This document shows, one piece after another, positions 10,694 through 33,060 of a stretch of 64,000 bases of DNA. The notes under the pieces were generated by a model, which was not told the origin of the DNA, did no database searches, and was given only the letters and a program-made list of their open reading frames with translations. This DNA comes from an uncultured Methylomirabilota bacterium (GTDB lineage Bacteria > Methylomirabilota > Methylomirabilia > Methylomirabilales > 2-02-FULL-66-22), in NCBI GenBank assembly GCA_963842855.1, contig CAWJHW010000004.1, forward strand, positions 72,684 to 136,683, in the 5' to 3' direction. Position 1 is the stretch's first letter. The number at the start of each line of letters is the position of its first letter. A program made the translations under genes and the position numbers.

Positions 10694-11425
10694 ATGGCCG
10701 AAGCCATGGTGGACGTCCAGGGCCTCACGAAGGTGTTCGGGACGACGCTCGCCCTGGATGCCGTGGATCTGCGGGTGGATCCGGGCGAGGTGGTGGCGCT
10801 GCTCGGGCCCAACGGGGCAGGGAAGACCACGCTCCTGAAGCTTCTGGCCACGGCGATCAGGCCGACGGCCGGGGGTGGGCGCGTGCTGGGCCTGGATCTC
10901 TTGAAGGGGCGCGACGCCATCCGGCGCCGGATCGGGATGATCTCTCACAACCACCACCTGTACGAGGATCTGACCGCCGAGGAGAACCTCGAGTTCGCCT
11001 CGGTGATGCACGGGATGCGCGTGGACGGCGGGCCGATCCGGAAGGCGCTCACCGAGGTGGGGCTGGACGGCCAGGCGCGCTCCAAGGTCCGGACCTTCAG
11101 TACCGGGATGAAGCGCCGGCTGGTGATCGCCAAGATGCTCCTCTTCGAGCCGGATCTCCTGTTCCTGGACGAGCCGCACAACACCCTGGATCAGGCGGCC
11201 ATCGCCCTGCTCAACGGCTACGTGGCCTCGGTGGCGGCGCGGGGCGGGGCGGCGGTCGTGGCGACCCACAACCTGTCCCGGGCGTACGACATGGCGGATC
11301 GCTTCATTCTGATGCGGGACGGGGCGGTGGCGTTGCGCGTCCAGAAGCAGGGACTGAGCGCCGAAGAACTGCGGGATCTGTACGGGCGGCACGCGGAGAA
11401 CGCCGACTCACCTAATGCGGAATGA
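10694..11425 (+). CDS. ccmA: heme exporter ATP-binding protein CcmA
   Basis: Walker A GPNGAGKTT, an ABC signature region, and position ahead of ccmB and ccmC. Start at ATG 10694. The 438-aa track ORF is an artefactual extension. Confidence 0.8.
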   Translation: MAEAMVDVQGLTKVFGTTLALDAVDLRVDPGEVVALLGPNGAGKTTLLKLLATAIRPTAGGGRVLGLDLLKGRDAIRRRIGMISHNHHLYEDLTAEENLEFASVMHGMRVDGGPIRKALTEVGLDGQARSKVRTFSTGMKRRLVIAKMLLFEPDLLFLDEPHNTLDQAAIALLNGYVASVAARGGAAVVATHNLSRAYDMADRFILMRDGAVALRVQKQGLSAEELRDLYGRHAENADSPNAE

Positions 11426-11530
11426 ACTGAAAACCAAGGGCGTACGAACGTACGAGAGTTCGAACGTACGGCGTCCGCTCGCGTACATTCGTACATGCGT
11501 ACGCTCGTACGCAGTTCGTTCGTGGGGTGG
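11426..11530. repeat. intercistronic word-repeat element (CGTACG words)
   Basis: GCGTACGAACGTACGAGAGTTCGAACGTACGG plus GCGTACATTCGTACATGCGTACGCTCGTACGC. The second block is near-identical to 8278-8311. Confidence 0.7.
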
Positions 11531-11560
11531 AATGCAGAGTGAGGGCCGGGAGCGGGCAGC

Positions 11561-16710: not shown

Positions 16711-16790
16711 TCGCCCAATCGGCCATTGGGCGATCTGGCAATCAGGCAATCGGGCAATCGGGGGGAACCGAAAACTCCGGGTTGCCAGTT
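16711..16790. repeat. intercistronic word-repeat element (GGCAATC words) with a 9-bp palindrome
   Basis: TCGCCCAATcggccATTGGGCGA followed by TCTGGCAATCAGGCAATCGGGCAATCGGGG. It starts directly after the ccmH stop. Confidence 0.7.
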
Positions 16791-17148: not shown

Positions 17149-19364
17149 GGAGCATCCTGGACCAGCTCCGCCAGGCAGGGCTGGATCGCATCCATGCCAA
17201 GCTGCTGGAGGGACGGCGCCTCGACTTCGATGATGGGATGCACCTGTACCAGACGCCCGATCTCACGGCCGTGGGGTACCTGGCGAACCTGGCGCGCGAG
17301 CGGAAGAGCGGCGCCCGGACGTACTTCGTCCGGAACCTCCACGTCAACTACACCAACATCTGCAACAAGCTCTGCAAGTTCTGCTCCTTCTATGCCGCGC
17401 CGAACAGCACCGACGGGCGCGGCTACGTCCTGAGCCCGGAAGAGGCGGCCGCCCGGGTCGCCAAGTACGGCGGGGAGCCGATCCGCGAGATCCACATGGT
17501 CGCGGGGATCAACCCGAAGCTTCCCTACCAGTACTACCTCGACCTCCTGCGGGCCGTGAAGGCGGCGCGGCCCGACGCGCAGATCAAGGCCTTCACCATG
17601 ATCGAGCTGGCCCAGATCGCCCGCGCGGCCAAGCGGTCCCTGGCGGAGGTCCTGCCCGAGCTGAAGGCGGCGGGGCTCACCGCATGCCCCGGGGGCGGCG
17701 CCGAGGTCTTCAGCGATCGCGTCCACGAGGAGCTGTTCCGCGCCAAGCTGGACAACCAGGGCTGGTTCGACGTGGCCCGGGCGGTCCACGCCGCCGGCAT
17801 CCCGAGCAACGCCACGCTCCTGTACGGGCACATCGAGACGCAGGAGGAGAAGGTCCGCCACCTGCTCCACATCCGGGAGCTGCAGGATGCGACCGGCGGG
17901 TTCATGTGCTTCGTGCCCCTGGCCTTCGACCCCAGCCGGACCGAGCTGTCGCATCTTCCCGTCACCACCGGCTACGCCAACCTGCGGGAGATCGCCATGG
18001 CGCGCCTCCTCCTGGACAACTTCCCCCACGTCAAGGCCTTCTGGATCATGATCACGCCGGCCGTAGCCCAGATGGCGCTCTGGTACGGGGCCGACGACAT
18101 CGACGGCACCGTGTCCCACTACGAGATCACCCACGCTCTGGGGACGACCTCGCACCGGCAGGTCCTGGGGACGGCGGAGCTTCTCGACCTCATCGCCGAG
18201 GTGGGGCGCGAGCCGGTGGAGCGCGATGCCCTGTACAATGTGGTAGAAGAGCCGAGAGCCGAGGGCCGAATGCAGCGGGTCATAAGGTCGGCGGATCGCG
18301 GACTGGCGGATGTCGAAGAGAAGATCCTAAACGGGGAGCGCCTGAGCTTCGCGGATGGAGTGCGGCTGTTCCGCGAGGCGAATCCCCTGCAACTCTCCTC
18401 GTGGGCCAACCTCGTCCGCCGGCGCCTCCACCCGGAGGGTCTGGTTACATACGTCATCGGGCGGAACATCAACTACACCAACGTCTGCTGGGTGCAGTGC
18501 AAGTTCTGCAGCTTCTTCCGGCTGCCCGGCGCCGAAGGGGCTTACGTCCTGCCGAGGGAGGCGGTCTTCCGAAAGATTCAGGGGTTGTTGGCGCTGGGCG
18601 GGACCGAGATCCTCATCCAGGGGGGCCTGAATCCGGCGCTGAAGATCGACTATTTCGAGGAGCTGTTCCGCGCCATCAAGGCGCGCTTCCCGATTCACAT
18701 CCACGGGCTGTCGCCGGCCGAGATCATCTACCTGGCTAAGATCTCCAACCTGAGCGAGGGGGACTGTCTCGCGCGCCTCAAGGGCGCTGGAATGGACTCC
18801 ATTCCGGGGGCCGGGGCGGAGATGCTGGTGGACGAGGTGCGCGAGCAGATCGCCCCTCACAAGGACTCCGCGGCGGCGTGGCTCAACCTCATGCGGACGG
18901 CCCACCGGCTCGGCATCCCCTCCACGGTGACCATGATGTACGGGTCGGTGGAGACGGTAGAGCAGCGGGTCGAGCACCTGATCAAGCTGCGCGACCTGCA
19001 GGACGAGACCGGCGGGTTCCGCGCCTTCATCCCCTGGAGCTTCCAGCCCGAGGGGACCCACCTGCCCAACGTCAGGCGCGCCAGCGGGTTCGACTACCTC
19101 CGCACGGTCGCGATCTCGCGGCTGATGCTGGACAACATCAGGAACATCCAGGCGTCCTGGCTGACGCAGGGGCCCAAGATCGGCCAGATCGCCCTCCAGT
19201 ACGGCGTCAACGACATGGGGAGTACGGTCATCGAGGAGAACGTCGTCACGGCCGAGGGGGCGGTCTTCATGGTGCCGCTAGCCGAGATCGAGCGCCTCAT
19301 CCAAGACGCCGGCCTTCGCCCCGCCCGCCGCGACACCCGCTACGAGATTCTAGCCGTCGCCTGA
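17145..19364 (+). CDS. fusion of two MqnE/MqnC-family radical-SAM modules (futalosine menaquinone pathway)
   Basis: 739 aa. Module 1 has NYTNICNKLCKFCSF. Module 2 starts at M376 (ATG 18270) and has NYTNVCWVQCKFCSF. Each module is about 365 aa, which is full length for the family. The junction is a GAGCCGAGAGCCGAGGGCCGA word repeat (18249-18269) with no in-frame stop. Confidence 0.75.
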   Translation: MRSILDQLRQAGLDRIHAKLLEGRRLDFDDGMHLYQTPDLTAVGYLANLARERKSGARTYFVRNLHVNYTNICNKLCKFCSFYAAPNSTDGRGYVLSPEEAAARVAKYGGEPIREIHMVAGINPKLPYQYYLDLLRAVKAARPDAQIKAFTMIELAQIARAAKRSLAEVLPELKAAGLTACPGGGAEVFSDRVHEELFRAKLDNQGWFDVARAVHAAGIPSNATLLYGHIETQEEKVRHLLHIRELQDATGGFMCFVPLAFDPSRTELSHLPVTTGYANLREIAMARLLLDNFPHVKAFWIMITPAVAQMALWYGADDIDGTVSHYEITHALGTTSHRQVLGTAELLDLIAEVGREPVERDALYNVVEEPRAEGRMQRVIRSADRGLADVEEKILNGERLSFADGVRLFREANPLQLSSWANLVRRRLHPEGLVTYVIGRNINYTNVCWVQCKFCSFFRLPGAEGAYVLPREAVFRKIQGLLALGGTEILIQGGLNPALKIDYFEELFRAIKARFPIHIHGLSPAEIIYLAKISNLSEGDCLARLKGAGMDSIPGAGAEMLVDEVREQIAPHKDSAAAWLNLMRTAHRLGIPSTVTMMYGSVETVEQRVEHLIKLRDLQDETGGFRAFIPWSFQPEGTHLPNVRRASGFDYLRTVAISRLMLDNIRNIQASWLTQGPKIGQIALQYGVNDMGSTVIEENVVTAEGAVFMVPLAEIERLIQDAGLRPARRDTRYEILAVA

Positions 19365-19596
19365 CCATGAATCCCGCCCACATGGGGGATCCCCGCAGGG
19401 AATGGTTGGCGCACGTGGCTGTACCTGGTAGCCTGTTCTCGTACGAGGTGGGGGAGAGGGCGGAGGATAGGGGGTGTTGCGTCACGACGCACCATGGGGT
19501 GCCTGCTGTACAGGAGATGAAGGAGGGCCCTTCGGAGCCGCTGTACAGGCAGAGGCTCCAAACCACCCTGAGCTGCTGCAGCCAAAAGCTGTGGTG

Positions 19597-20112
19597 GTGA
19601 GCGTCAGGGGAAAAGGCGTGACGGTGATCATGTCAGGTGGGGGTTGGGGAGACGAGCGCAAGCGAACCACTGCTGACGCATCGAAAGCCTTTAGACGACA
19701 TCAAAACCAGACTCGCACCCTCGGTCTGGGGGCAGCATGGCGGGAACCTGGTTACTGGCCATGTGGTGTCCGGTGTATAGGTGGCGTGACCCCAATCTGG
19801 GCTCCTGTATGGAACGTGAGAACCTTGCCGGTGATGCCAAGGGAAAAGGCCCAAGCGGCGGACCCGCGAGGCCGAAAGTACCGATGCGCTGGCAAGGGGC
19901 GGACTGCCCCGGAGTAGCGTTGAACCAGGGTAACGCCTGGGGAGCGAAGGGGGCAGGTCACTCCACCGATTCCCCCGGGCCAACCGGTAACGGGAGGAGC
20001 TCGCCGGGATCGGCAGAAGGCGGCAGCCTTCGATGAGTGGCACGAGCCGTATGACTGGAGACAGTCACGTACGGATCTGTGAGGGCCTCGGGGTGAAAGT
20101 CCCCGGGGCTAC
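19597..20112 (+). ncRNA. ORF-less group II intron-like ribozyme (5' boundary uncertain, 19470-19600)
   Basis: Domain V is at 20044-20077 (GAGCCGTATGACTGGAGACAGTCACGTACGGATC) with the AGC triad, an AC bulge and a GAGA tetraloop. A domain VI helix follows and the element ends CTAC at 20112. A domain III-like GGGTAACGCC region is at 19912-19953. A GTGAGCG candidate 5' end is at 19597. No RT ORF is present. Confidence 0.6.
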
Positions 20113-20123
20113 TCGGCACCGGC

Positions 20124-20462
20124 ATGCGACGATTGGGCGCGCTGCTTCTGACAATTCTCGTGCTCTCTGGTTCCGTGGCCTACGGCGACGGCTCCTCTCC
20201 TTCCCAGAAATGCATCGCCCCGTTGAAGCAGACCCGGTTTGCGACGCAGTTCCAGCTCGACTCCTACCGGGCTGCTGTAGAGCTTTACCGATCCTGTCTC
20301 GAAGCCTTTGTCAAGGAGCAGGAGCGAGAAATCGAGAACCACCAACGCGCGGTCCAGAGCGCCATCGACGAATGGAATCGCTTCGTGGGGGAGGAAACGA
20401 AAGGGGCTCCCAGCGCTCCGAAGGACAAGGGGGGGCAGCAGGAGGGCGAGTACCGAAACTGA
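20124..20462 (+). CDS. small secreted/periplasmic hypothetical protein
   Basis: 112 aa with signal-peptide-like MRRLGALLLTILVLSGSVAYG followed by a helical, charged region. The ATG lies 12 nt after the intron-like 3' end. Confidence 0.45.
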   Translation: MRRLGALLLTILVLSGSVAYGDGSSPSQKCIAPLKQTRFATQFQLDSYRAAVELYRSCLEAFVKEQEREIENHQRAVQSAIDEWNRFVGEETKGAPSAPKDKGGQQEGEYRN

Positions 20463-20516: not shown

Positions 20517-20576
20517 CAAGACGCCGGCCTTCGCCCCGCCCGCCGCAACACCAAGTACGAACTCCTGCCCGACTGA
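20517..20576 (+). pseudogene. relic 3' end of an MqnC-type gene
   Basis: Encodes QDAGLRPARRNTKYELLPD* against the live C-terminus QDAGLRPARRDTRYEILAVA*. The first 30 nt are identical to 19302-19331. Confidence 0.65.
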
Positions 20577-20641
20577 CCGGATCTTGCTCCCGATGGGAAT
20601 CCTGCCCTGAGTGAGCGGCCCTCCGCGGACGCCGGACCCGT

Positions 20642-24909: not shown

Positions 24910-25366
24910 ACGTCGTCCCGTCCAGGGCCACCGCCTTGCTGGCACTCCGAACATCGTAGACGTCCTTGCCGTCCGAGAGGCTGGAGTCCGGGTTGTCGGA
25001 GAAGGACCGGGTGACCCACTTCCCATCGGGGGTCATGGGATCGCGAGGGATCCGTCGAAGGATCTTGGTCTCCACCATTTCGTCCAGGGTCAGCGGGTAG
25101 CCGGTCCGGTCGGCCGAGACCTTCTTCTTGAGGGCCTCCCGGGCGTCCACGGCGTTCACCCTGGCCTTGTCGTACTCCGCCTTGAAGAAGTCGATGCCCT
25201 CGCGCAACTGCCGGAGGTTCCGGCGCAGCTCCAGCTCGCGCGTCCGGGCGACGGACACCTGGACCAGGGGCATAGCCACTGCCGCCAAGACGCCCAGGAC
25301 GGCGATGGAAACCAGGAGCTCGATGAACGTCAGACCCCGCGGGCCCCGAGACGGGAATCGGGTCAT
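24896..25366 (-). CDS. GspG-type pseudopilin
   Basis: MTRFPSRGPRG|LTFIELLVSIAVLGVLAAVAMP prepilin motif with Glu+5. LRRIPRDPMTPDGKW and C-terminal DGTTYETW. Confidence 0.7.
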   Translation of the reverse strand: MTRFPSRGPRGLTFIELLVSIAVLGVLAAVAMPLVQVSVARTRELELRRNLRQLREGIDFFKAEYDKARVNAVDAREALKKKVSADRTGYPLTLDEMVETKILRRIPRDPMTPDGKWVTRSFSDNPDSSLSDGKDVYDVRSASKAVALDGTTYETW

Positions 25367-27321
25367 GGTTGGACACCGCCGGGTGGCGCGCCGCCCGGGG
25401 ACCCGCCGGGCGGACCGGATGGCCGCGCGGGAGGTGCGCTTGGTGGTGGTGGCGAGGGCGGCGCCGGCGCAACCGGGGGGACAGCCGGCGCCGCGGGTCC
25501 GAAGCTCTCGGCGGTGCCGGACTGGAAGGTCTCCAGCTCAGGCTCCGGCCGCTCCAGGACCTTGACGATCCGGGCGGTGATGGAAATCAGGACATCGGTT
25601 CGGGTCCACTCCTGACTCGGGTTGACGAACAGCCGGCCGAGCCCGGGGATATCGCTCAGGAAGGGGATGGGACTGTTGGCCAGGGAGTGCGTGGTCTGCA
25701 GGAGCCCACCCAGGAGGCGGGTCTCACCGTTCTTGACCTTGATGAAGGTGTCCAGGTCCCGCGTCTCTATAGGAGGGAGAAGCTGGCCCCCGGTCACCCC
25801 GGCGATGGCCGCCCCGACGCTGCTGATCTCGAAGCTCAGCTCGACCGTGACCTCGCCGTCGAGGTGAATGGTCGGGGTCAGGGTCACCTTGAGGCCGATG
25901 TCCCGGTACTCCACATTCGTCTGCGTGGTCGTCACCGCCCCGGTGGGAGTCGTGGTGGCCGTGCCCGCGATGGCGGGAACGCTGGTGAGCGAGGAGATCT
26001 GGAATGGGCGCCGCTCCCCGATCAAGAGCCGCGCCTTCTGGCGATCCAGGATGCGGACGGTGGGGTTGGCCAGAGTCTTGGTGCTGCTATCGTTCTTGAC
26101 CAAGTTCAGAACCAGGGAGGGACCGGTGAAGCTCAGCGTGCTGCCTTGATAAATACTGCTCAGTATGCTCCCCGTTAAGGGGAGGCTCGCCGGGGGGGCC
26201 AGGGTCACAGAGAGGGTTCGGGGCTGGATATCAATGCCAAGGTTCTCCAGGCGGTCGAGATCCACTTCCAAAACCTCCAGATCGATCTCCACCTCACCCA
26301 CCCCTCGGTCGTTGGCTGCCAGAAGCTTCCGGACCAGCTCGACCTTGTCTGGCGTGTCCCGCACGACCAGGGCGTTGAGCTTCTCGTTCACGAAGACCTG
26401 GCGGGTGTTGAGAATAGTGCGCACGAGGTTCACGGCCACCTTGGCGTCGGCGTCACTCAGATAGAACGTCTGGACCACGAGGTCGTCGTACTGCTGGCGC
26501 TTGCCGGGATTGTCGGGCACCACGATCACTGTGTTGGGGGCGACCCGCTTCGCGAAGAGCCGGTTGGAGACCAGGATGAGGTTGAAGGCCTCCCGTAAGG
26601 GGAGGTCCTTGAAGTAGGTCGTGATCCGCTTGGCCGGTAGCGACTCGTCGGTGGAGATGTTGACCCCGGCGGTGCGGGCGAAGACCTCCAACGCCTCTTT
26701 GATGTCCGTGTCGCGGAACCGGAGCGTCACCGGCTGGGTGGAGAACATCTGCGCGGCAGCCTGTTCCTCTTCGGCCTCCGCCTTGGGTGGGGTCTCGGCC
26801 TTCAGGTTCAGCGCGATCTCCTTCTGCAGTTCCTTGGCGCGGGGATGGTCGGGATCCAGCCGCAGCGCCGCGGCCACTTCGATCTGGGCGGCCCGCCACT
26901 CCCCCTTCTTCATCCGTTCCTGCGCCCGGGCAAGGCGCTCGTCAACCTGCCGGAGAACTGTGATCCGGACCAGCCCGGCCTGGGCCGCCGTGTTCTCGGA
27001 GTTGTAGTTCAGGGCGCGACGGTAGGCCGCGGCGGCCTCATCCACACGATTGTCCTTCACCAGTTCTTGGGCCTGCCGAACCAACTGCTCTGACGCCTCC
27101 TGCATGGCACGGGCGAGGGCCAGGCGAATCTCCACGTTCCGGGGATCCCGGCTGGCCGCGTCCAGGTAGAACTTGACCGCTTCCTCCCAGCGCCCGGCCG
27201 TGCTCAGCTCCTCCCCGCGCTGGAGAGATACTTCCGCCGCACAGCCCAGCAGCGAGCCGCCCAGAACGAGGATCAGGCCCAGGCAGCCGACCCGACCGGC
27301 GCGCGATATGCTCATGGCCAT
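25363..27321 (-). CDS. secretin (GspD/PilQ family) with a lipobox, an N-terminal TPR region and a Pro-rich C-terminal tail
   Basis: LLGC lipobox. TPR-like repeats in residues about 30-170. Secretin core (LANPTVRILDRQKARLLIGE, IPFLSDIPGLGRLF). The tail reads PAVPPVAPAPPSPPPPSAPPARPSGPPGG. Confidence 0.85.
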   Translation of the reverse strand: MAMSISRAGRVGCLGLILVLGGSLLGCAAEVSLQRGEELSTAGRWEEAVKFYLDAASRDPRNVEIRLALARAMQEASEQLVRQAQELVKDNRVDEAAAAYRRALNYNSENTAAQAGLVRITVLRQVDERLARAQERMKKGEWRAAQIEVAAALRLDPDHPRAKELQKEIALNLKAETPPKAEAEEEQAAAQMFSTQPVTLRFRDTDIKEALEVFARTAGVNISTDESLPAKRITTYFKDLPLREAFNLILVSNRLFAKRVAPNTVIVVPDNPGKRQQYDDLVVQTFYLSDADAKVAVNLVRTILNTRQVFVNEKLNALVVRDTPDKVELVRKLLAANDRGVGEVEIDLEVLEVDLDRLENLGIDIQPRTLSVTLAPPASLPLTGSILSSIYQGSTLSFTGPSLVLNLVKNDSSTKTLANPTVRILDRQKARLLIGERRPFQISSLTSVPAIAGTATTTPTGAVTTTQTNVEYRDIGLKVTLTPTIHLDGEVTVELSFEISSVGAAIAGVTGGQLLPPIETRDLDTFIKVKNGETRLLGGLLQTTHSLANSPIPFLSDIPGLGRLFVNPSQEWTRTDVLISITARIVKVLERPEPELETFQSGTAESFGPAAPAVPPVAPAPPSPPPPSAPPARPSGPPGGSPGGAPPGGVQP

Positions 27322-27346
27322 GGGTGACCTTCCTCCGTTCCGTGCC

Positions 27347-27910
27347 TCAGCGCTTGGGACCGGACGCCGCTTCCTCCACGAGGGGGAGGCGCACTTGCTT
27401 GTCGCCGGAGACGGACGACAGCAGAACGGCGTCCTCCGTGACCGCCTGGACGCGGAAACGCTCCAGAAACGTGGATCCCACCTCGACCGTGAAGATCTCG
27501 GGCCCCCGGGTGATGAAGGCCATCGCCTTGTCCCCGTCCTCCACGAACCCCACGAAGCGCAGCCGCTTGGACTCTTCCTGGAAAGGATCCGGCGGTGGCG
27601 GTTGGGGCGCTGCCGCTGCCGCTGCCGCGATCTGCTGCGGCGAGGGGGGAGGCGGCGGCGGCGTCCCGAAGAGGTTGTGCGCCTCCGGAGGGTAGGCCGG
27701 ATGCGGCAGGACCAGCAATTCCTTTTTCAGGCGGGGAAGCCCTCCGCCTTGGGCCGGTGGCGTCCGCAGGCTGGTGCCCACGCTCGCCCGAGGCTGCGAC
27801 TTGACCGGGCCCCCCCAGGGAGAGCGGAAGGCGAAAATCAGGCCCCAGATGCCGAAAAGGGTCAGCAGGATGAGGAGGTTCCGTTTTCGCGAGTCCATCC
27901 GCGCGCGCAC
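27347..27910 (-). CDS. PilP/GspC-HR-like inner-membrane-anchored protein
   Basis: N-terminal TM, a Pro-rich linker and a C-terminal beta-rich domain (LRFVGFVEDGDKAMAFI...VTEDAVLL), as in PilP. It lies between the PilO-like gene and the secretin. Confidence 0.5.
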   Translation of the reverse strand: MRARMDSRKRNLLILLTLFGIWGLIFAFRSPWGGPVKSQPRASVGTSLRTPPAQGGGLPRLKKELLVLPHPAYPPEAHNLFGTPPPPPPSPQQIAAAAAAAPQPPPPDPFQEESKRLRFVGFVEDGDKAMAFITRGPEIFTVEVGSTFLERFRVQAVTEDAVLLSSVSGDKQVRLPLVEEAASGPKR

Positions 27911-27918
27911 CTTCCGAT

Positions 27919-27948
27919 TCCCTGTCCCTGTCGCTATCGCTGTCGGCT
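27919..27948. repeat. short intercistronic word-repeat (CCCTGT/CGCTRT)
   Basis: CCCTGTCCCTGTCGCTATCGCTGTCGGC lies in the spacer between the PilO-like and PilP-like genes. Confidence 0.5.
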
Positions 27949-27987
27949 TTCGCCCATCCGTCCGTGCTCCGGCTCGTGCCGCGTCCC

Positions 27988-28512
27988 CTACCTGACATAG
28001 ACGGAGAGCTGCAATCGAACCTGCAGCTCCGAGGTGCCCCTGGGATCCGTGAGCGTCATCCGCTCGATCACCAGGTGACGGTGCATCGCCTCCAGCTCGT
28101 AGAGGTAGCGGCGGATCTTGCCGTAGGTGCCCTCCACGGCCATGCTGATCGTGACTTTCGTCAGACCGGCTTCTTTGACCTCGGACGGCGAATAATCCAC
28201 CGTCGGGATGTTCACGGCAACCGATCGCCCCAGCTTGGTGAGCCGGCCGATGAGCCCCACCAGGTCCGCCCGCGGGGGAAACCCCTGGGCGAATTCCTCC
28301 ACCTCTCGGAAGGCGACCAGCACGACGTCGCTGGACTCCCCCTCCCGCTGCAGGCTTCGGATGCGCCGCTGGAGATCCAGGAGTTGTTGTTCCTGCCCGA
28401 GGCGCTGGTCGCGAGCCGCCAGGAGCAGGAAGACCAGGGCCAGGCCGTTGGCCACCAAGAGGACCATGGCCACCAGCCAGAGCCGCTGCGCCCGGGGGTC
28501 GAGGGATCTCAT
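27988..28512 (-). CDS. PilO/GspM-like bitopic protein
   Basis: 175 aa from ATG 28512 with TM, coiled-coil and ferredoxin-like C-terminal architecture. Overlaps the PilN-like stop. Confidence 0.55.
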   Translation of the reverse strand: MRSLDPRAQRLWLVAMVLLVANGLALVFLLLAARDQRLGQEQQLLDLQRRIRSLQREGESSDVVLVAFREVEEFAQGFPPRADLVGLIGRLTKLGRSVAVNIPTVDYSPSEVKEAGLTKVTISMAVEGTYGKIRRYLYELEAMHRHLVIERMTLTDPRGTSELQVRLQLSVYVR

Positions 28513-29081
28513 TTTCCGCCGACCCGATAGATCAGGCTCAGGCTGAACTCCAGTCCTTCGGGCCTCCCCACCTGATTCTGTAGTTCCGTCTGGTGGAGCA
28601 GGAAGACATCCCGGAAGGCGGGACGCTCCTCCAGGCCGCGGAGCAACAGGCTGAGATCCTCGAAGGAAGACGCCACCCCGCGCAGGGACACCCGGCCGGT
28701 CGCCAGATCCGGAGAGATCTCTTTGAGGAAGACGGAGGGCGGCACGGATCGCTCCAGCTCCACCAGGAGGCCGATCCACGAGAAGGCCGAGGCTTCCAGG
28801 ATCTGGTTGTACGCCTTGACTCTCCCCTGGTACCGCTTCATGGTCTCTTCAGGGACGCTGGCCAGGGCGGTGCGCAGCTCCTCCTGATGGCGCCGGAATT
28901 CCCCCTCCATCCGCGCCAGGCGCAGTGCGATGGCCGCTCGCTCGCCGCGGCCCACGGCCCACATGGCGACCTGCCCCGCCAAGAGGAGGCCGAGCACCGC
29001 AACCGCGCAGGTCCCCAAGATCACATCCCGACGCGCCCGGCGGAAGTTTCCGCTGGCCAGATTGAATCCCGCGATTAACAT
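28509..29081 (-). CDS. PilN-like fimbrial assembly protein
   Basis: 191 aa from ATG 29081 (MLIAGFNLASGNFRRARR, then TM, then coiled coil). ATGTTAA overlap with the PilM-like gene. Confidence 0.6.
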   Translation of the reverse strand: MLIAGFNLASGNFRRARRDVILGTCAVAVLGLLLAGQVAMWAVGRGERAAIALRLARMEGEFRRHQEELRTALASVPEETMKRYQGRVKAYNQILEASAFSWIGLLVELERSVPPSVFLKEISPDLATGRVSLRGVASSFEDLSLLLRGLEERPAFRDVFLLHQTELQNQVGRPEGLEFSLSLIYRVGGK

Positions 29082-29977
29082 GGTCGAATGGCCGCCCCGA
29101 TGGCGGGTCCCCACTGGGCGAGATCGTCCGGATGCCCGTCGGTGCGAAGCGCGGCGCACAGATCCAGGATCGTGACGGGGACCCCCAACCACTCCGCCAG
29201 CGCCGAGGCGACCTCGGCTGTCCACGCACCCAGGCCGGCCAGGGTGACTCCCTCCACGGGCTCCAGCCCCTCGGATTCCCGGCAGAAGATCAGCGAATCC
29301 ACCACCTCGCGGAGGAGGCGTGTCCGGTCGTCGCCCATCCACCCGGGCAGTCCCTCGGGCAGGACCCGCCAGAATCGCGGCCGGCCTTCCTGCACCACGA
29401 GGAGCGTGGTCCAGGTCCTCCCGACGTGGAGCAACCCGGCCGTCCCCCGGGCCAGGGGCGCCGACGCGGCCTGGGCCAAGCTGATGCTCCGGGCGTCCAG
29501 GACGGCGGCGCGAAGGCCCGCGTCTGCCAGGATTCGCTCGTACTCCGCGAGAGTGCGGTCTCGCGCCACCAAGCAGACCGCCCGCGCCCGCCCGTCGGGT
29601 CCCGGGCCCAACGGGAGAAAGTCCAGCCGGGCCTCGTCGGCCGGGAAGGGGAGCAGCTCCCGGGCCTGCCAGCGCAGGAACCGCTGGGCGTCCTCGCGCT
29701 TCCCGGGCAACTCATCGCTGGTCAGGGTTCGCAGGCTGAAGACCGGATCGGGCAAGGCCACCCGCACCCACCCCCGACAGCCGGCGTTCTTGCACAGGTC
29801 GCGCAGCAGCCCGCTCAGGGCGGCGGCGTCGGTCACATTCCCGTCCTTCTGGGAGGGCCGGATGAGCCCGGATGGCACCGCAACCTCCGCCCGCCGGCGA
29901 AGCTGGAGCCGTCCCTGCCGCACCTCGGCGCGGCACACCCGCAGCGTCTCCGATTCGATCTCCAGTCCCCAGGCCAT
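29075..29977 (-). CDS. PilM-like actin-fold assembly protein
   Basis: 300 aa with cytoplasmic FtsA/PilM-like sequence. It sits immediately upstream of the PilN-like gene and downstream of the ATPase. Confidence 0.65.
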   Translation of the reverse strand: MAWGLEIESETLRVCRAEVRQGRLQLRRRAEVAVPSGLIRPSQKDGNVTDAAALSGLLRDLCKNAGCRGWVRVALPDPVFSLRTLTSDELPGKREDAQRFLRWQARELLPFPADEARLDFLPLGPGPDGRARAVCLVARDRTLAEYERILADAGLRAAVLDARSISLAQAASAPLARGTAGLLHVGRTWTTLLVVQEGRPRFWRVLPEGLPGWMGDDRTRLLREVVDSLIFCRESEGLEPVEGVTLAGLGAWTAEVASALAEWLGVPVTILDLCAALRTDGHPDDLAQWGPAIGAAIRPC

Positions 29978-30005
29978 CCTTCGCTCTCGCTCCGCCCTTC
30001 CCGCC

Positions 30006-31733
30006 TCACTCGCCGAAGGTCACGCGATTGATCTCCGCCACGGTCGTGGCCCCGGCACGAGCTTTCTCCAGGGCGGCCTCCCGCAGGAGCACCGTGCCAC
30101 CCGACCGGGCGGCACCGGCGATCTCGCTGGCGGGGCGACGGTCCAAGATCAGGGCGCGGATAACATCGGTCATTTCCACCAGCTCGCCCACCGCCGTGCG
30201 CCCGCGGAAGCCGCTGCCCCCGCACTCCTCACAGCCCACTGCCTCGTGGAACGTCCGCGCCTCGTCTTCCTTGGGGTCCAGCCCCAGCTCCTCCAAGGCC
30301 TCCCGGGGATAGCTCGCCGGCCGGCGGCAGGAGCGGCACAGCACCCGGACCAGGCGCTGGGTCAGGATGCAATTCAGGGAGGAGAGGAAGTGGTACGGCT
30401 CCAGCCCCATGTTGAGGAAGCGCCCGATGACGTCCATCACGTTGTTGGCGTGCACGGTGGTGAACACCAGGTGGCCGGTCAGGGCGGACTGGACGGCGAT
30501 CTGGGCCGTCTCGGAGTCGCGGATCTCCCCGACCAGGATCTTGTCCGGGTCGTGGCGCAGGATGCTGCGCAGGCCGCGGGCGAAGGTCAGGCCCTTCTTC
30601 TCGTTCACCGGGATCTGCACCACCTCGCGGAGCTGGTATTCGATGGGGTCCTCGATGGTGATGATCTTGTCCTCGCCCGTGTGGATCTCCGTGAGGGCCG
30701 CGTAGAGGGTGGTGGTCTTGCCCGACCCGGTGGGCCCCGTCACCAGGATCATGCCGTGGGGCCGGTGGATGTGCCGGCGGAACCGGCGCAGGTCGTTTTC
30801 GCTGATGCCCAGGATGTCCAGGCGGAGGTCGGCCAGTTCCTTGGTGATGGCCTCCTTGTCCAGGATGCGGATCACCACCGCCTCGCCGAAGTTGCTGGGC
30901 AGGATCGAGACGCGGAAGTCTATGGAGCGCCCGCGGACCTTGAGCTTGAAGCGACCGTCCTGGGGGACCCGGTGCTCGGCGATGTCCAGCTCGGCCATGA
31001 TCTTGATCCGGGACACGATGGTGGACTGGTGGCGCCGATCCAGAGGGTCCATGGCCGGGCGGAGCATGCCGTCGATCCGGTATTTCACCTGGACGTATTT
31101 CTCGTCGGCCTCGATGTGGACGTCGCTGGCCCGCTGCTCCAGGGCGGTCAGGAGCATAGTGTCCACCAGGCGGATGGTGGGGCTGACGTCCCCCCCGGCC
31201 GCCTCCAGGGAGACCGTGCCCTCCTCGCTGTCCGCCTCGACCAGCTTGAAGTCCTCCGTGACGGCGTTCAGGATCCGCTGGGAGGCGTCCACGCGGCTCA
31301 GCCGATCCAGGAGGGCGCCGCGGGTCACCAGGACCAGGTCCACCGGGCCTCCGTGCCACTGGGCCAGGTCATCCCGGAGCAGGACGTTGCCCGGGTCCGC
31401 CACGGCCACCACCAGCCGGTTGCCCTCGCGATGGAGGGGCAGGAACAGGTCGCGGCGCATCCGTTCCAGGGGGAAGGCATCCAGGACCCCGGGCTCAATG
31501 AGGGTGGTGCCGAGGTCCACCAGGGACAGGTCGTACAGGCGGCTGAGGCACTGGGCCAGCTTCTCCTCGGACAGGAGACCGGCGTCCACCAGGTGCCACC
31601 CCAGGCCGCCCCGCACGCCGTCCCGCTGGGCCAGCGTCCGGTCCAGCTCCGGGCGGCTGATATGTCCCTCGCCGAGCAGGGCGTCTTCCAGGGTGCGATA
31701 GCGGGTCATGTCGGGCCTCGACTCACGCTGCAC
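30006..31733 (-). CDS. GspE/PilB-family secretion ATPase with an MshEN-like N-terminal domain
   Basis: Walker A GPTGSGKTT, Asp/His boxes and a tetracysteine CxxC...CxxC motif. The N-terminus has two MshEN-type motifs (LEDALLGEGHISRPELDRTLAQ and LGWHLVDAGLLSEEKLAQCL). Confidence 0.9.
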   Translation of the reverse strand: MQRESRPDMTRYRTLEDALLGEGHISRPELDRTLAQRDGVRGGLGWHLVDAGLLSEEKLAQCLSRLYDLSLVDLGTTLIEPGVLDAFPLERMRRDLFLPLHREGNRLVVAVADPGNVLLRDDLAQWHGGPVDLVLVTRGALLDRLSRVDASQRILNAVTEDFKLVEADSEEGTVSLEAAGGDVSPTIRLVDTMLLTALEQRASDVHIEADEKYVQVKYRIDGMLRPAMDPLDRRHQSTIVSRIKIMAELDIAEHRVPQDGRFKLKVRGRSIDFRVSILPSNFGEAVVIRILDKEAITKELADLRLDILGISENDLRRFRRHIHRPHGMILVTGPTGSGKTTTLYAALTEIHTGEDKIITIEDPIEYQLREVVQIPVNEKKGLTFARGLRSILRHDPDKILVGEIRDSETAQIAVQSALTGHLVFTTVHANNVMDVIGRFLNMGLEPYHFLSSLNCILTQRLVRVLCRSCRRPASYPREALEELGLDPKEDEARTFHEAVGCEECGGSGFRGRTAVGELVEMTDVIRALILDRRPASEIAGAARSGGTVLLREAALEKARAGATTVAEINRVTFGE

Positions 31734-31740
31734 TACCTTT

Positions 31741-31840
31741 CAATGTAAAACTGACAACCGACAACTGGCAACCGGGCCATGTTCGTTTTCGGCTGTCGGT
31801 TTTTCGTTGTCAGTTGTCGGTTTCAAATTTTCCATTGGCC
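31741..31840. repeat. intercistronic word-repeat element (TGTCGGTT / AACCGACA words, inverted)
   Basis: CTGACAACCGACAACTGGCAACCGG ... CGGCTGTCGGTTTTTCGTTGTCAGTTGTCGGTTTC. The two arms are inverted copies able to form a long hairpin between the GspF-like and GspE-like genes. Confidence 0.7.
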
Positions 31841-31845
31841 GCAGT

Positions 31846-33060
31846 CTACCGGACGACCGCCGACAGGTGGAAGATGGGCAAGTACATGATGATGACGATC
31901 GTGGCCACGACCAGGCCCATGCCGATCATGACAATGGGCTCGATCACGGCCGCCAGGGCGGTGAGCTGGGTGTCCATCTCCGCGTCGTACAGGTCGGCCA
32001 CATGGCCCAGCATCTCTTGAAGCGATCCACTGCTCTCCCCAACGGAGACCATCTCCAGGAGGAGCGAGGGGACGACCCCCGAACTCCCCAGCGCATCGGC
32101 TAGCGTGTTGCCGGCCGTCACCCGCGGGATCACGGGTTGGAGCGCCTCCGCCACGTACGCATTCCCCAGGACGCCAAACGTCGCTTGAAGCGATGGGATC
32201 ATCGGGATGCCGCCACCCAGCGTCATGGACAGGGTGCGGGCAAACCGGGAGAACAGATATCCACGCACGAGGTCCCCCACGAAGGGGAGGCGCAGGGTCC
32301 AGCGGTCAATCGAGCGCCGGCCGGTCGCCGTCGCGCGCCAGCGCCACGCCCCCAGCAGAAGAAGCGCGACGACCCCGCCGACGATCGGCAGGGTGCCCCG
32401 GAGGCGCTGCGTCAGGGCCACCAGCATCCGGGTTGCCACGGGGAGTTCAGCCTCCATGTCGCCGTAGATCCGGGTGAACGTGGGGACCACGAACGTCAGC
32501 AGGAAGGTGATGACGGCCCCTGACGCCACAACGAGGACAGCGGGGTAGGTGAGGGCCGCGCGGAACCGCTGTCGCATGGCCATGATCCGCTTCTGGTACT
32601 CCAGGTACCGCGAGAGCGCGTCCACGAGATTCCCGCTTTGCTCCCCGGCCTGCAGGGCCCCCGTGTACAGTGGGGAGAAGATGCGCGGGTGCTGGGCCAG
32701 GGCGGCGGAGAGGGCCGCGCCGCCCTTCACCGCCTCCCGCGCCTCGGCCAGGACGGCGCGCAGGTAGGGCTGCTGGGTTCGTTCCCCCAGGAGATCCAGG
32801 GCCGTGAGGATGGGCAAGCCGGCCTTGATGAGCGCCAGGAGTTCCTGGTTGAACACCAGGAGCGCCTGGAGTCCGACGCGACCGTGGCCGAGGGCGAAGT
32901 GCGGACGCAGACCCCGATCCTCGGTCGAGCCCTCGACGGCAAAGACGAAGTACCCCTGGGCTTCCAGGCGTCGCCGGGCGGCCTCGGGGCGTTCCTCCTC
33001 GACCTCCTGGGTGAGGAGGCTTCCCGTGGGGGTCCCGACCCTGCAAGAGAAACGCGGCAT
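31846..33060 (-). CDS. GspF/PilC-family platform protein
   Basis: 404 aa with duplicated T2SSF domains and three TM segments. First gene of the minus-strand cluster. Confidence 0.9.
   Translation of the reverse strand: MPRFSCRVGTPTGSLLTQEVEEERPEAARRRLEAQGYFVFAVEGSTEDRGLRPHFALGHGRVGLQALLVFNQELLALIKAGLPILTALDLLGERTQQPYLRAVLAEAREAVKGGAALSAALAQHPRIFSPLYTGALQAGEQSGNLVDALSRYLEYQKRIMAMRQRFRAALTYPAVLVVASGAVITFLLTFVVPTFTRIYGDMEAELPVATRMLVALTQRLRGTLPIVGGVVALLLLGAWRWRATATGRRSIDRWTLRLPFVGDLVRGYLFSRFARTLSMTLGGGIPMIPSLQATFGVLGNAYVAEALQPVIPRVTAGNTLADALGSSGVVPSLLLEMVSVGESSGSLQEMLGHVADLYDAEMDTQLTALAAVIEPIVMIGMGLVVATIVIIMYLPIFHLSAVVR

Follow-up and report, generated by a model that had tools for sequence, protein, structure and literature searches.

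A probably mobile, RmInt1-like group II intron without an ORF, inserted between the likely ribosome-binding site and the start codon of a small gene

Introduction

The gene row mqn – small ORF – rtcB is interrupted by an RNA element between the mqn-type gene and the small ORF in the window (the whole 64-kb stretch of DNA that was analysed, in which all positions are counted). Is this element a mobile intron, a decayed copy of one, or an autonomous ribozyme? A preliminary description, based on the letters of the DNA, read it as a compact ORF-less derivative of a group II intron that would favour hydrolysis and possibly resemble the hydrolytic endonucleolytic ribozymes (HYER; Liu et al. 2024, Science). 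The first part of this reading, an ORF-less group II intron, is supported by the analysis presented here, while the boundaries and the HYER-style chemistry had to be revised.

ORF-less group II introns of bacteria are a known kind, and the intron described here is already recognised by Rfam. They were considered rare in a review from 2015 (PMC4424553), and Miura et al. counted 888 ORF-less introns among 13,041 bacterial group II introns (PMC8919778). The natural ORF-less introns of Thermosynechococcus rely on the intron-encoded proteins (IEPs) of related introns (PMC2882425), and ORF-less introns of archaea home into intron ORFs, according to Dai and Zimmerly (2003), cited in PMC4424553. In published descriptions, HYERs are class IIC introns that lack an ORF and recognise a target of 6 nt, and HYER1, which has a length of 637 nt, dimerises via a palindromic domain III loop (bioRxiv 10.1101/2024.08.31.610620; PMC12990946).

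Results

Identity and boundaries of the element

When the whole window was scanned with Rfam at gathering thresholds, exactly two matches were obtained, both on the + strand and both full-length (Table 1). Group-II-D1D4-2 lies in the 5′ part of the element and Intron_gpII covers its 3′ end, and both exceed the gathering score, in agreement with the group II intron suggested earlier. The ORFs overlapping the element had no match in Pfam, and tblastn with two class D IEPs detected no RT in the element or anywhere in the 64-kb window; the earlier statement that no RT or maturase is encoded here is therefore correct. Judged by its sequence, the element at 19477–20117 is an ORF-less group II intron, a designation that follows from the two Rfam matches, the covariation-supported fold with six domains (see below) and the lack of an RT or maturase ORF.

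The exact ends of the intron were derived from empty sites. An identical copy of the 112-aa protein encoded downstream of the intron is present on 15 public contigs. On each of the six of them that were listed, the gap between the mqn-type gene and the small ORF comprises 118 nt, versus 759 nt in the window. The flanks of the six intron-less contigs are 99.3–99.5% identical to the window on both sides, and the alignments break exactly between 19476 and 20118, so that the intron extends exactly from 19477 to 20117. Neither a target duplication nor a positional ambiguity was observed at the intron junctions in comparison to the six empty-site contigs. An nhmmer search with a family profile returned the same interval (E = 5.5e-172) as the sole copy within the 64-kb window.

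The intron starts with UUGCG at 19477 and ends with CUACUCGGC at 20117. It is inserted in sense orientation into a row of co-directional genes, 112 nt past the mqn stop codon and 6 nt ahead of the ATG of the small ORF (20124), and it separates this start codon from its likely ribosome-binding site. Both ends differ from those assumed before. GTGAGCG at 19597, which had been proposed as 5′ end, is a conserved internal loop in the D1D4-2 match, and the true 5′ end at 19477 is given by the empty site; the 3′ end had been placed at 20112, 12 nt before the ATG, but is at 20117.

Table 1. Features of the intron and its insertion site; positions refer to the window.
Feature	Position	Strand	Description
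Whole ORF-less group II intron	19477–20117	+	641 nt, 5′-UUGCGUCACGACG...GGGGCUACUCGGC-3′; from empty-site break points and family-profile nhmmer
group-II-D1D4-2 (RF01999) match	19519–19638	+	117.5 bits (gathering score 36); model positions 1–118; within domain I
Intron_gpII (RF00029, domains V–VI) match	20042–20117	+	52.9 bits (gathering score 40)
IBS2 candidates, 5′ exon	19456–19466	+	GGAGG 19462–19466 (5 bp) or GAGGGC 19456–19461 (6 bp)
IBS1	19471–19476	+	GGGGUG, last 6 nt of the 5′ exon; pairs with EBS1 CACCCU
Domain I	19482–19819	+	basal helix UCACG 19482–19486 / CGUGA 19815–19819; helix 1 99.5% paired, 3 of 5 pairs with double changes
EBS2	19687–19692	+	loop GCCUUU; changes together with the upstream flank across lineages
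EBS1	19716–19721	+	hairpin loop CACCCU; pairs with the last six bases of the 5′ exon
EBS3	19778	+	U; pairing of this column with flank base +1 in 62 of 62 insertions, six pair types
Domain II	19820–19900	+	helices 19–22, 93–100% paired, compensatory changes
Domain III	19904–19956	+	helices 23–25, 98% paired
Domain IV stub	19957–20041	+	85-nt short stem, no ORF; helices 26–29 with compensatory changes
Domain V	20044–20077	+	RF00029, 52.9 bits; helix 30 of the consensus fold
Domain VI	20081–20114	+	bulged branch-site A at 20111; Rfam alignment and consensus fold
IBS3	20118	+	A, first base of the 3′ exon; pairs with EBS3 U19778
Downstream small ORF	20124–20462	+	112 aa, signal-peptide-like N-terminus; identical protein on 15 contigs

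Covariation supports a six-domain fold that the element shares with its family

A single-sequence MFE fold of 19365–20125 was uninformative (z = −1.84), and comparative folding was used instead. The fold was derived from an alignment of 42 diverse copies with a mean column identity of 73%, and the resulting consensus consists of the six canonical domains (Table 1). Pairing was found in 97.0% of the cells, compared to 34–42% when the partners were slid by 1–3 columns, and 133 of the 194 pairs showed changes on both sides, compared to 38–44 with slid partners. None of 500 shuffles matched the observed values for pairing and double changes; the consensus structure was tested on its own source alignment and is somewhat favoured by this, yet the margin is very large.

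Several features that had been recognised from the single sequence reappear in this fold. The region 19912–19953, reported to resemble domain III, lies within domain III (19904–19956), and domain IV is indeed a short stem, with a length of 85 nt. The proposed long-range pairing of GCGTCAG (19601–19607) with CTGACGC (19673–19679), on the other hand, is not part of the consensus fold of the 42 relatives and conflicts with the Rfam helix formed by UCAGGG (19604–19609) and CCCUGA (19566–19571). Domain IV retains the region CCAACCGG...GGGAGGAG, which in the ORF-containing relative L124 is located upstream of the IEP start codon, and it also holds a lineage-specific hairpin, GAAGGCGGCAGCCUUC, in its 3′ half.

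Domain V is a 34-nt hairpin with the AGC triad at 20045–20047, a lower helix of 9 positions, an AC bulge, an upper helix of 5 bp and a GAGA loop. Sequence and RF00029 score (52.9 bits) are in accordance with the full architecture that had been claimed for 20044–20077. As also stated before, A20075 is positioned opposite G20046 of the triad (G·A). This had been regarded as a deviation of this copy, but among 67 copies of the family 42 have A and 23 have U at this position. G·A is a family trait and the majority state, and no lesion of the window copy.

Domain VI had been described as having no obvious bulged branch adenosine. However, A20111, located seven nt from the 3′ end, is bulged between the 10-bp upper and the 3-bp lower helix of this domain, and this branch-site A (A635 of the alignment) is invariant in all 42 sequences. 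With a branch site that is present and invariant, the argument for hydrolytic chemistry that was built on its absence falls.

In comparison to the consensus GUGYG/AY for the termini, the 5′ end UUGCG fits at positions 2–5 and deviates at U1, and the 3′ end is GC. The same termini are found in the relatives, with U1 in 38 of 42 and a GGC end in 41 of 42 sequences. Relatives that encode an RT have GUGUG at the 5′ end and AU (L124) or CC (L222) at the 3′ end. The combination of U1, the ...GGC end and the G·A, all common to most of the family, could alter the chemistry of the reaction.

Of the 196 consensus pairs, two are non-standard in the window copy and the other 194 are intact. The copy departs from columns with at least 90% conservation at 15 positions, of which 11 are paired, and 10 of these 11 changes preserve the pair. 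Two oddities are uncompensated: G19731 (A in 41 relatives) and G19912, which replaces a U with 98% conservation and breaks one pair of domain III. These two changes could somewhat impair the window copy and its 99.5% identical twin (see below). The catalytic triad, the AC bulge, the GNRA loop and the branch A are all present, and the window copy is predicted to have an intact ribozyme fold.

The insertion site matches EBS1, EBS2 and EBS3

For target recognition, 62 independent insertions were analysed, and their flanking sequences were compared to the alignment of the introns. In addition to the invariable pairing of the EBS3 column (Table 1), flank positions −1, −3, −4 and −5 pair with EBS1 columns in 95–98% of the 62 insertions, with 2–5 pair types each. 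IBS1 was switched among lineages (UGGGUC, AUGGCA, GAGGGG, AGUGCC, CUGGUG and others), and the EBS1 loop shows matching changes. The complement of EBS2 lies 2–4 nt, possibly 9 nt, further upstream, and the longest complementary run between EBS2 and flank had a mean of 5.93, compared to 4.79 ± 0.13 in 1000 permutations (maximum 5.21). Of the two IBS2 candidates at the window site, GGAGG has a 4-nt spacer, as in most relatives. The site in the window fits EBS1, EBS2 and EBS3, with GGAGG or GAGGGC, then GGGGUG and, beyond the junction, A.

The RNA is of the class D / IIB3 type

A blastn search revealed a relative in Sinorhizobium (L123) with 65% nucleotide identity over intron positions 40–484. 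This relative is located on pSymA, pSymB and accessory plasmids; it is RmInt1 according to this copy distribution, which matches the published pattern (PMC5894124), and it bears the D1D4-2 motif. The IEPs of the closest RT-encoding relatives comprise about 415–430 aa and are 54–59% identical to the IEP of RmInt1. Use of EBS2 is a trait of IIB and not of IIC introns (PMC4424553), and the IIC prototype from O. iheyensis belongs to a different model, Rfam D1D4-3 (PMC3965019). The homology to RmInt1, the similarity of the relatives' IEPs, the use of EBS2 and the match to D1D4-2 and not D1D4-3 assign the RNA, as far as can be read from sequence comparison, to the RmInt1-like class D / IIB3 type.

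Class IIC had also been considered, prompted by plasmid matches in Serratia, Shigella and Pseudomonas and by the IEP of relatives matching best to IIC RTs in the PDB. It was ruled out: the relative in Sinorhizobium, RmInt1, is of class D, covariation links EBS2 to the flanks, and the PDB is without a class D IEP for comparison. Class IIC introns have no EBS2 and insert after a terminator or attC stem-loop; no terminator-like site was found upstream of the insertion.

The window intron and RmInt1 from Sinorhizobium meliloti (class D IEP, IIB3 RNA) share the D1D4-2 model and recognition by EBS1, EBS2 and EBS3, and the IEPs of RmInt1 and of the closest RT-encoding relatives are alike in having no endonuclease domain (PMC5894124). 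Unlike RmInt1, the window intron has no ORF in domain IV, an extra hairpin in the 3′ half of this domain, U1 instead of G1, and A·G instead of U·G opposite the triad G.

A near-identical second copy and a large family of ORF-less relatives

A twin of the window copy was found in soil or peat metagenomes (L202, L220). It differs by 3 mismatches in 641 nt (99.5% identity) and is inserted at an unrelated locus, where IBS1 and the +1 A are the same.

More distant relatives are numerous. Comparison with plasmids by blastn resulted in 494–498 records, among them plasmids of Methylosinus and Rhizobium with contiguous copies that lack an ORF. When species-representative genomes were scanned with a pattern, at least 113 loci were obtained, and nhmmer identified at least 76 full-length contiguous copies on at least 68 of them; as a domain IV hairpin was part of the pattern, the excess of ORF-less copies in this set is in part a matter of design. 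Among the genome-scan matches listed, most are from MAGs of Alphaproteobacteria, and others are from Acidobacteriota, Chloroflexia, NC10 and Verrucomicrobiota; a single genome often holds many copies. The closest relatives in this list are about 70–75% identical to the window copy. A scan of metagenomes with the domain V pattern only gave at least 120 contigs with at least 49 contiguous ORF-less copies, and among the matches listed three contigs (L190, L191, L222) carry a class D-type RT. In total, more than 120 contiguous ORF-less relatives from several phyla were collected, and the median length in the family is 641 nt.

Most of the 8-kb loci of the relatives contain no RT. Two loci with split nhmmer matches, L066 and L100, were considered as RT-containing relatives and rejected, since an unrelated membrane ORF and an IS110-like transposase, but no RT, were found in them. 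The RT-encoding relatives L222 and L191 are of the class D type, have very similar domains V and VI and stem from comparable metagenomes. Some ORF-less relatives are nested in introns of another class (Rfam D1D4-6), 1–73 nt past the RT ORF of the host intron. Among the matches listed in these pattern-biased scans of short loci, the copies form a single lineage of the class D type that lacks an ORF, has the stub of domain IV in common and keeps its fold under clear purifying selection.

Discussion

A recently inserted intron that probably depends on a foreign RT

We conclude with a probability of roughly 80% that the element is an intact mobile group II intron that lacks an ORF, is non-autonomous and belongs to the RmInt1-like RNA type (class D / IIB3; Rfam D1D4-2). 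The empty sites, the flanks matching the EBS motifs and the twin copy bear the signature of recent retrohoming or retrotransposition by complete reverse splicing. The direction, gain and not precise loss, is inferred; on this reading, empty sites and twin show that the intron entered the stretch between ribosome-binding site and start codon very recently.

The intron would be co-transcribed with the mqn – small ORF – rtcB row. Its RNA is expected to fold into the six-domain ribozyme and to be excised as lariat through A20111. Ligation of the exons would join GGGGGUG to ACCGGCAUG, i.e., ...GGAGGAUAGGGGGUG to ACCGGCAUG (GGGGGUG-ACCGGC-AUG), and would thereby restore the ribosome-binding site of the small ORF. 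It is likely that IBS1 doubles as Shine-Dalgarno sequence of this ORF. Unspliced RNA should be translated poorly with regard to the small ORF, since the G-rich IBS1 is the only plausible Shine-Dalgarno sequence at a workable distance. Expression of the small secreted protein should consequently depend on splicing, because the insertion splits the ribosome-binding site from the start codon.

For spread of the intron, the excised RNA would reverse-splice into DNA sites that fit EBS1, EBS2 and EBS3, and would then be copied by an RT/maturase. Mobilisation probably depends on a reverse transcriptase acting in trans; as the element encodes none, a different intron of the same cell would have to provide it. 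Engineered ΔORF derivatives of RmInt1 are reportedly mobilised by the IEP in trans, according to work from the Toro laboratory. Candidate sources of the RT are class D-type introns like L222 and L191, or the Rfam D1D4-6 introns that host ORF-less copies. The nesting in D1D4-6 introns follows the precedent of archaeal ORF-less introns homing into other introns (cited in PMC4424553).

The natural ORF-less introns of bacteria and archaea resemble the window intron and its relatives in several respects: the ribozyme is complete, the ORF is deleted, several copies exist, and some of the relatives are nested past the RT ORF of another intron. Those introns were described as sporadic derivatives in one genome, whereas here one lineage with about 70–75% identity is distributed over five phyla or classes among the matches listed (Alphaproteobacteria, Acidobacteriota, Chloroflexia, NC10, Verrucomicrobiota). 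C.te.I1 of Clostridium tetani is likewise an ORF-less bacterial intron and, in a genome without any IEP, may need no maturase (PMC4424553), but it occurs singly within a gene, is spliced alternatively and does not form a mobile lineage with many copies.

Other explanations

A broader reading concerns the lineage as a whole. It could be an old, single ORF-less class D-type lineage that persists in at least five phyla without an RT of its own, either by parasitising the RTs of unrelated intron classes, in which its copies are often nested, or by having gained an enhanced protein-free activity. We regard this as rather unlikely. If the protein-free activity were real, the lineage would be a IIB counterpart of HYER with programmable recognition of about 12–13 nt (EBS1 + EBS2 + EBS3) versus about 7 nt. 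The extra EBS2 pairing would then address the main stated limitation of HYERs, the recognition sequence of about 7 bp.

The suggestion that the window element itself is HYER-like, i.e., an RNA endonuclease that cleaves by hydrolysis and needs no intron-encoded protein to act or to multiply, is improbable. Similarities to HYERs exist: there is no ORF, the size of about 0.6 kb is close to that of HYER1 (637 nt, PMC12990946), the lineage is present in multiple copies in resident genomes, among them several MAGs, and most 8-kb loci lack an RT. The derived U1 and the G·A in domain V, which could shift the chemistry, would also be compatible with it. However, the G·A is the norm in the family, the branch A does not vary, and domain VI is conserved, with changes that compensate each other. 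The exact 5′ junction at every copy indicates complete reverse splicing and not cleavage, and with exact presence/absence polymorphism, flanks matching the EBS motifs and a near-identical second copy the element behaves as a retro-mobile intron. Published descriptions of HYERs as class IIC with a 6-nt target further set them apart from the window intron, which is RmInt1-like (IIB3-like) with EBS2 and a conserved branch A; its sequence has no palindromic loop in domain III like that of HYER1/5. On the features compared with these descriptions, the element does not appear to be a HYER, and nothing seems to require HYER-like chemistry.

We see equally little reason to consider the copy an inactive relic that was inserted once, is now unable to splice or move, and would represent a 641-nt insertion uncoupling the small ORF from its ribosome-binding site. 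Such a fate would fit the two departures from highly conserved positions (G19731, G19912) and the lack of an RT in the 64-kb window. RmInt1 itself splices poorly in vivo in its natural host, where its insertion blocks the spread of the host IS element (PMC5894124). Against decay of the window copy speak the 194 of 196 intact consensus pairs, the compensation of nearly all changes, and the presence of triad, bulge, GNRA loop and branch A. The twin at the other site, which differs by just 3 nt, argues that the intron sequence was mobile very recently.

Presence/absence polymorphism alone gives no direction, but precise loss of an ancestral intron from the other strains is very improbable, since it needs an RT-mediated event and is rarer than insertion, all six contigs listed of the 15 with the small ORF are intron-less, and a 99.5% identical copy at a different locus fits recent spread.

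Significance of the locus and its lineage

With the mobile RmInt1-like intron as the preferred reading, the annotation of the locus itself is ordinary: a mobile intron of a well-known kind. Its relatives indicate that ORF-less bacterial group II introns do not occur only sporadically, and that a single ORF-less lineage of the class D type is abundant among bacteria from soil and peat that belong to several phyla. The members of this lineage have some marks in common, namely one architecture of domain IV, the derived U1, the ...GGC end and, frequently, the G·A in domain V.

Derived features and nesting of the ORF-less introns

The ORF-less lineage, to which the intron of the window belongs, carries several derived features. 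In 38 of the 42 aligned ORF-less copies the first position of the intron is a U and not a G, whereas RT-encoding relatives start with G1. The 3′ end reads GGC instead of AY in all but one of these copies (41 of 42), and the base opposite the G of the catalytic triad was A rather than U in 42 of 67 copies. The positions in the window are compiled in the table, together with those of the other features.

Positions of features in the window and at other loci
Feature	Sequence	Position
First intron nucleotide (U)	window	19477
Intron 3′ end (GGC instead of AY)	window	20116-20117
Base opposite triad G	window	20075
G-rich IBS1 next to the intron	window	19471-19476
Direct repeat, first copy	window	19302-19356
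Direct repeat, second copy	window	20517-20571
Stop codon of second repeat copy	window	20575-20577
Second repeat copy in intron-less strain	L001	10384-10453
Overlaps of blastn alignments with L001	window	11414-11542; 16729-16762
End of synteny with intron-less contigs	window	24245
Secretin/PilO/T2SS-F cluster	window	25363-33060
Array of four to five intron copies	L077	95-2692
Array of two intron copies	L035	2452-3744
Intron copy split by a 390-aa ORF	L100	2433-4771

At a number of loci (L185, L136, L207, L217, L233, L105, L144, L208, L211, L243) an RT ORF from another class of intron is followed on the same strand, after 1-73 nt, by an ORF-less copy, which is therefore nested within the domain IV region of that other intron. 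Rfam model D1D4-6, which represents another class, was seen at L185 and L233, and also at L222, a multi-layer nest that additionally contains an RT-encoding intron of the D1D4-2 type, the model of the ORF-less introns' own lineage.

Insertion sites and tandem arrays

Both known sites of the window's variant, the second being the flank of the copy in L202/L220, are located directly 3′ of a G-rich, Shine-Dalgarno-like GGGGGUG, with an ATG 0-6 nt downstream, and EBS1 (CACCCU), the intron loop that pairs with the 5′ exon, resembles an anti-Shine-Dalgarno sequence. With two sites, this placement may be due to chance; in L202 the ATG beside the intron opens no ORF of at least 80 aa.

An alphaproteobacterial subfamily has the EBS1 UGCCA (L017, L023, L081, L107, L114, L121). 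At all six loci the gene 41-57 nt upstream of the intron is a diverged paralogue (34-41% identity) of one ORF with the C-terminus ...RADEVIE, which by eye looks like a periplasmic substrate-binding protein. The homing target of the subfamily appears to be a sequence repeated behind such genes.

Two loci harbor head-to-tail arrays of ORF-less copies without spacer, in which ...CUACUCGGC is followed immediately by UUGUGUCACGAG... at the copy-to-copy junction. Repeated insertion at one and the same 5′-exon junction would explain these arrays, while copying of circular or concatemeric RNA is also conceivable. The ORF that splits the copy in L100 looks, by eye, like an IS110-type transposase.

Comparison with intron-less strains

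The 3′-terminal 20 codons of the double radical-SAM gene of mqn type are duplicated in a direct repeat of 55 nt (84% identity). The intron-less strains share the second copy of this repeat, which reads QDAGLRPARRNTKYELLPD up to the stop and lies as an orphan on the 3′ side of the small ORF. The repeat looks like the trace of an older insertion of a cassette of about 570 bp into the 3′ end of the mqn-type gene; this cassette would have comprised a replacement tail, a spacer and the small secreted ORF, and its insertion looks independent of the intron.

Synteny with six near-identical intron-less contigs ends upstream of the secretin/PilO/T2SS-F cluster of the window; in three of them (L001-L003) a class II ribonucleotide reductase is found instead. 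The overlaps between the L001 alignments suggest that the strains differ locally by short duplications or indels.
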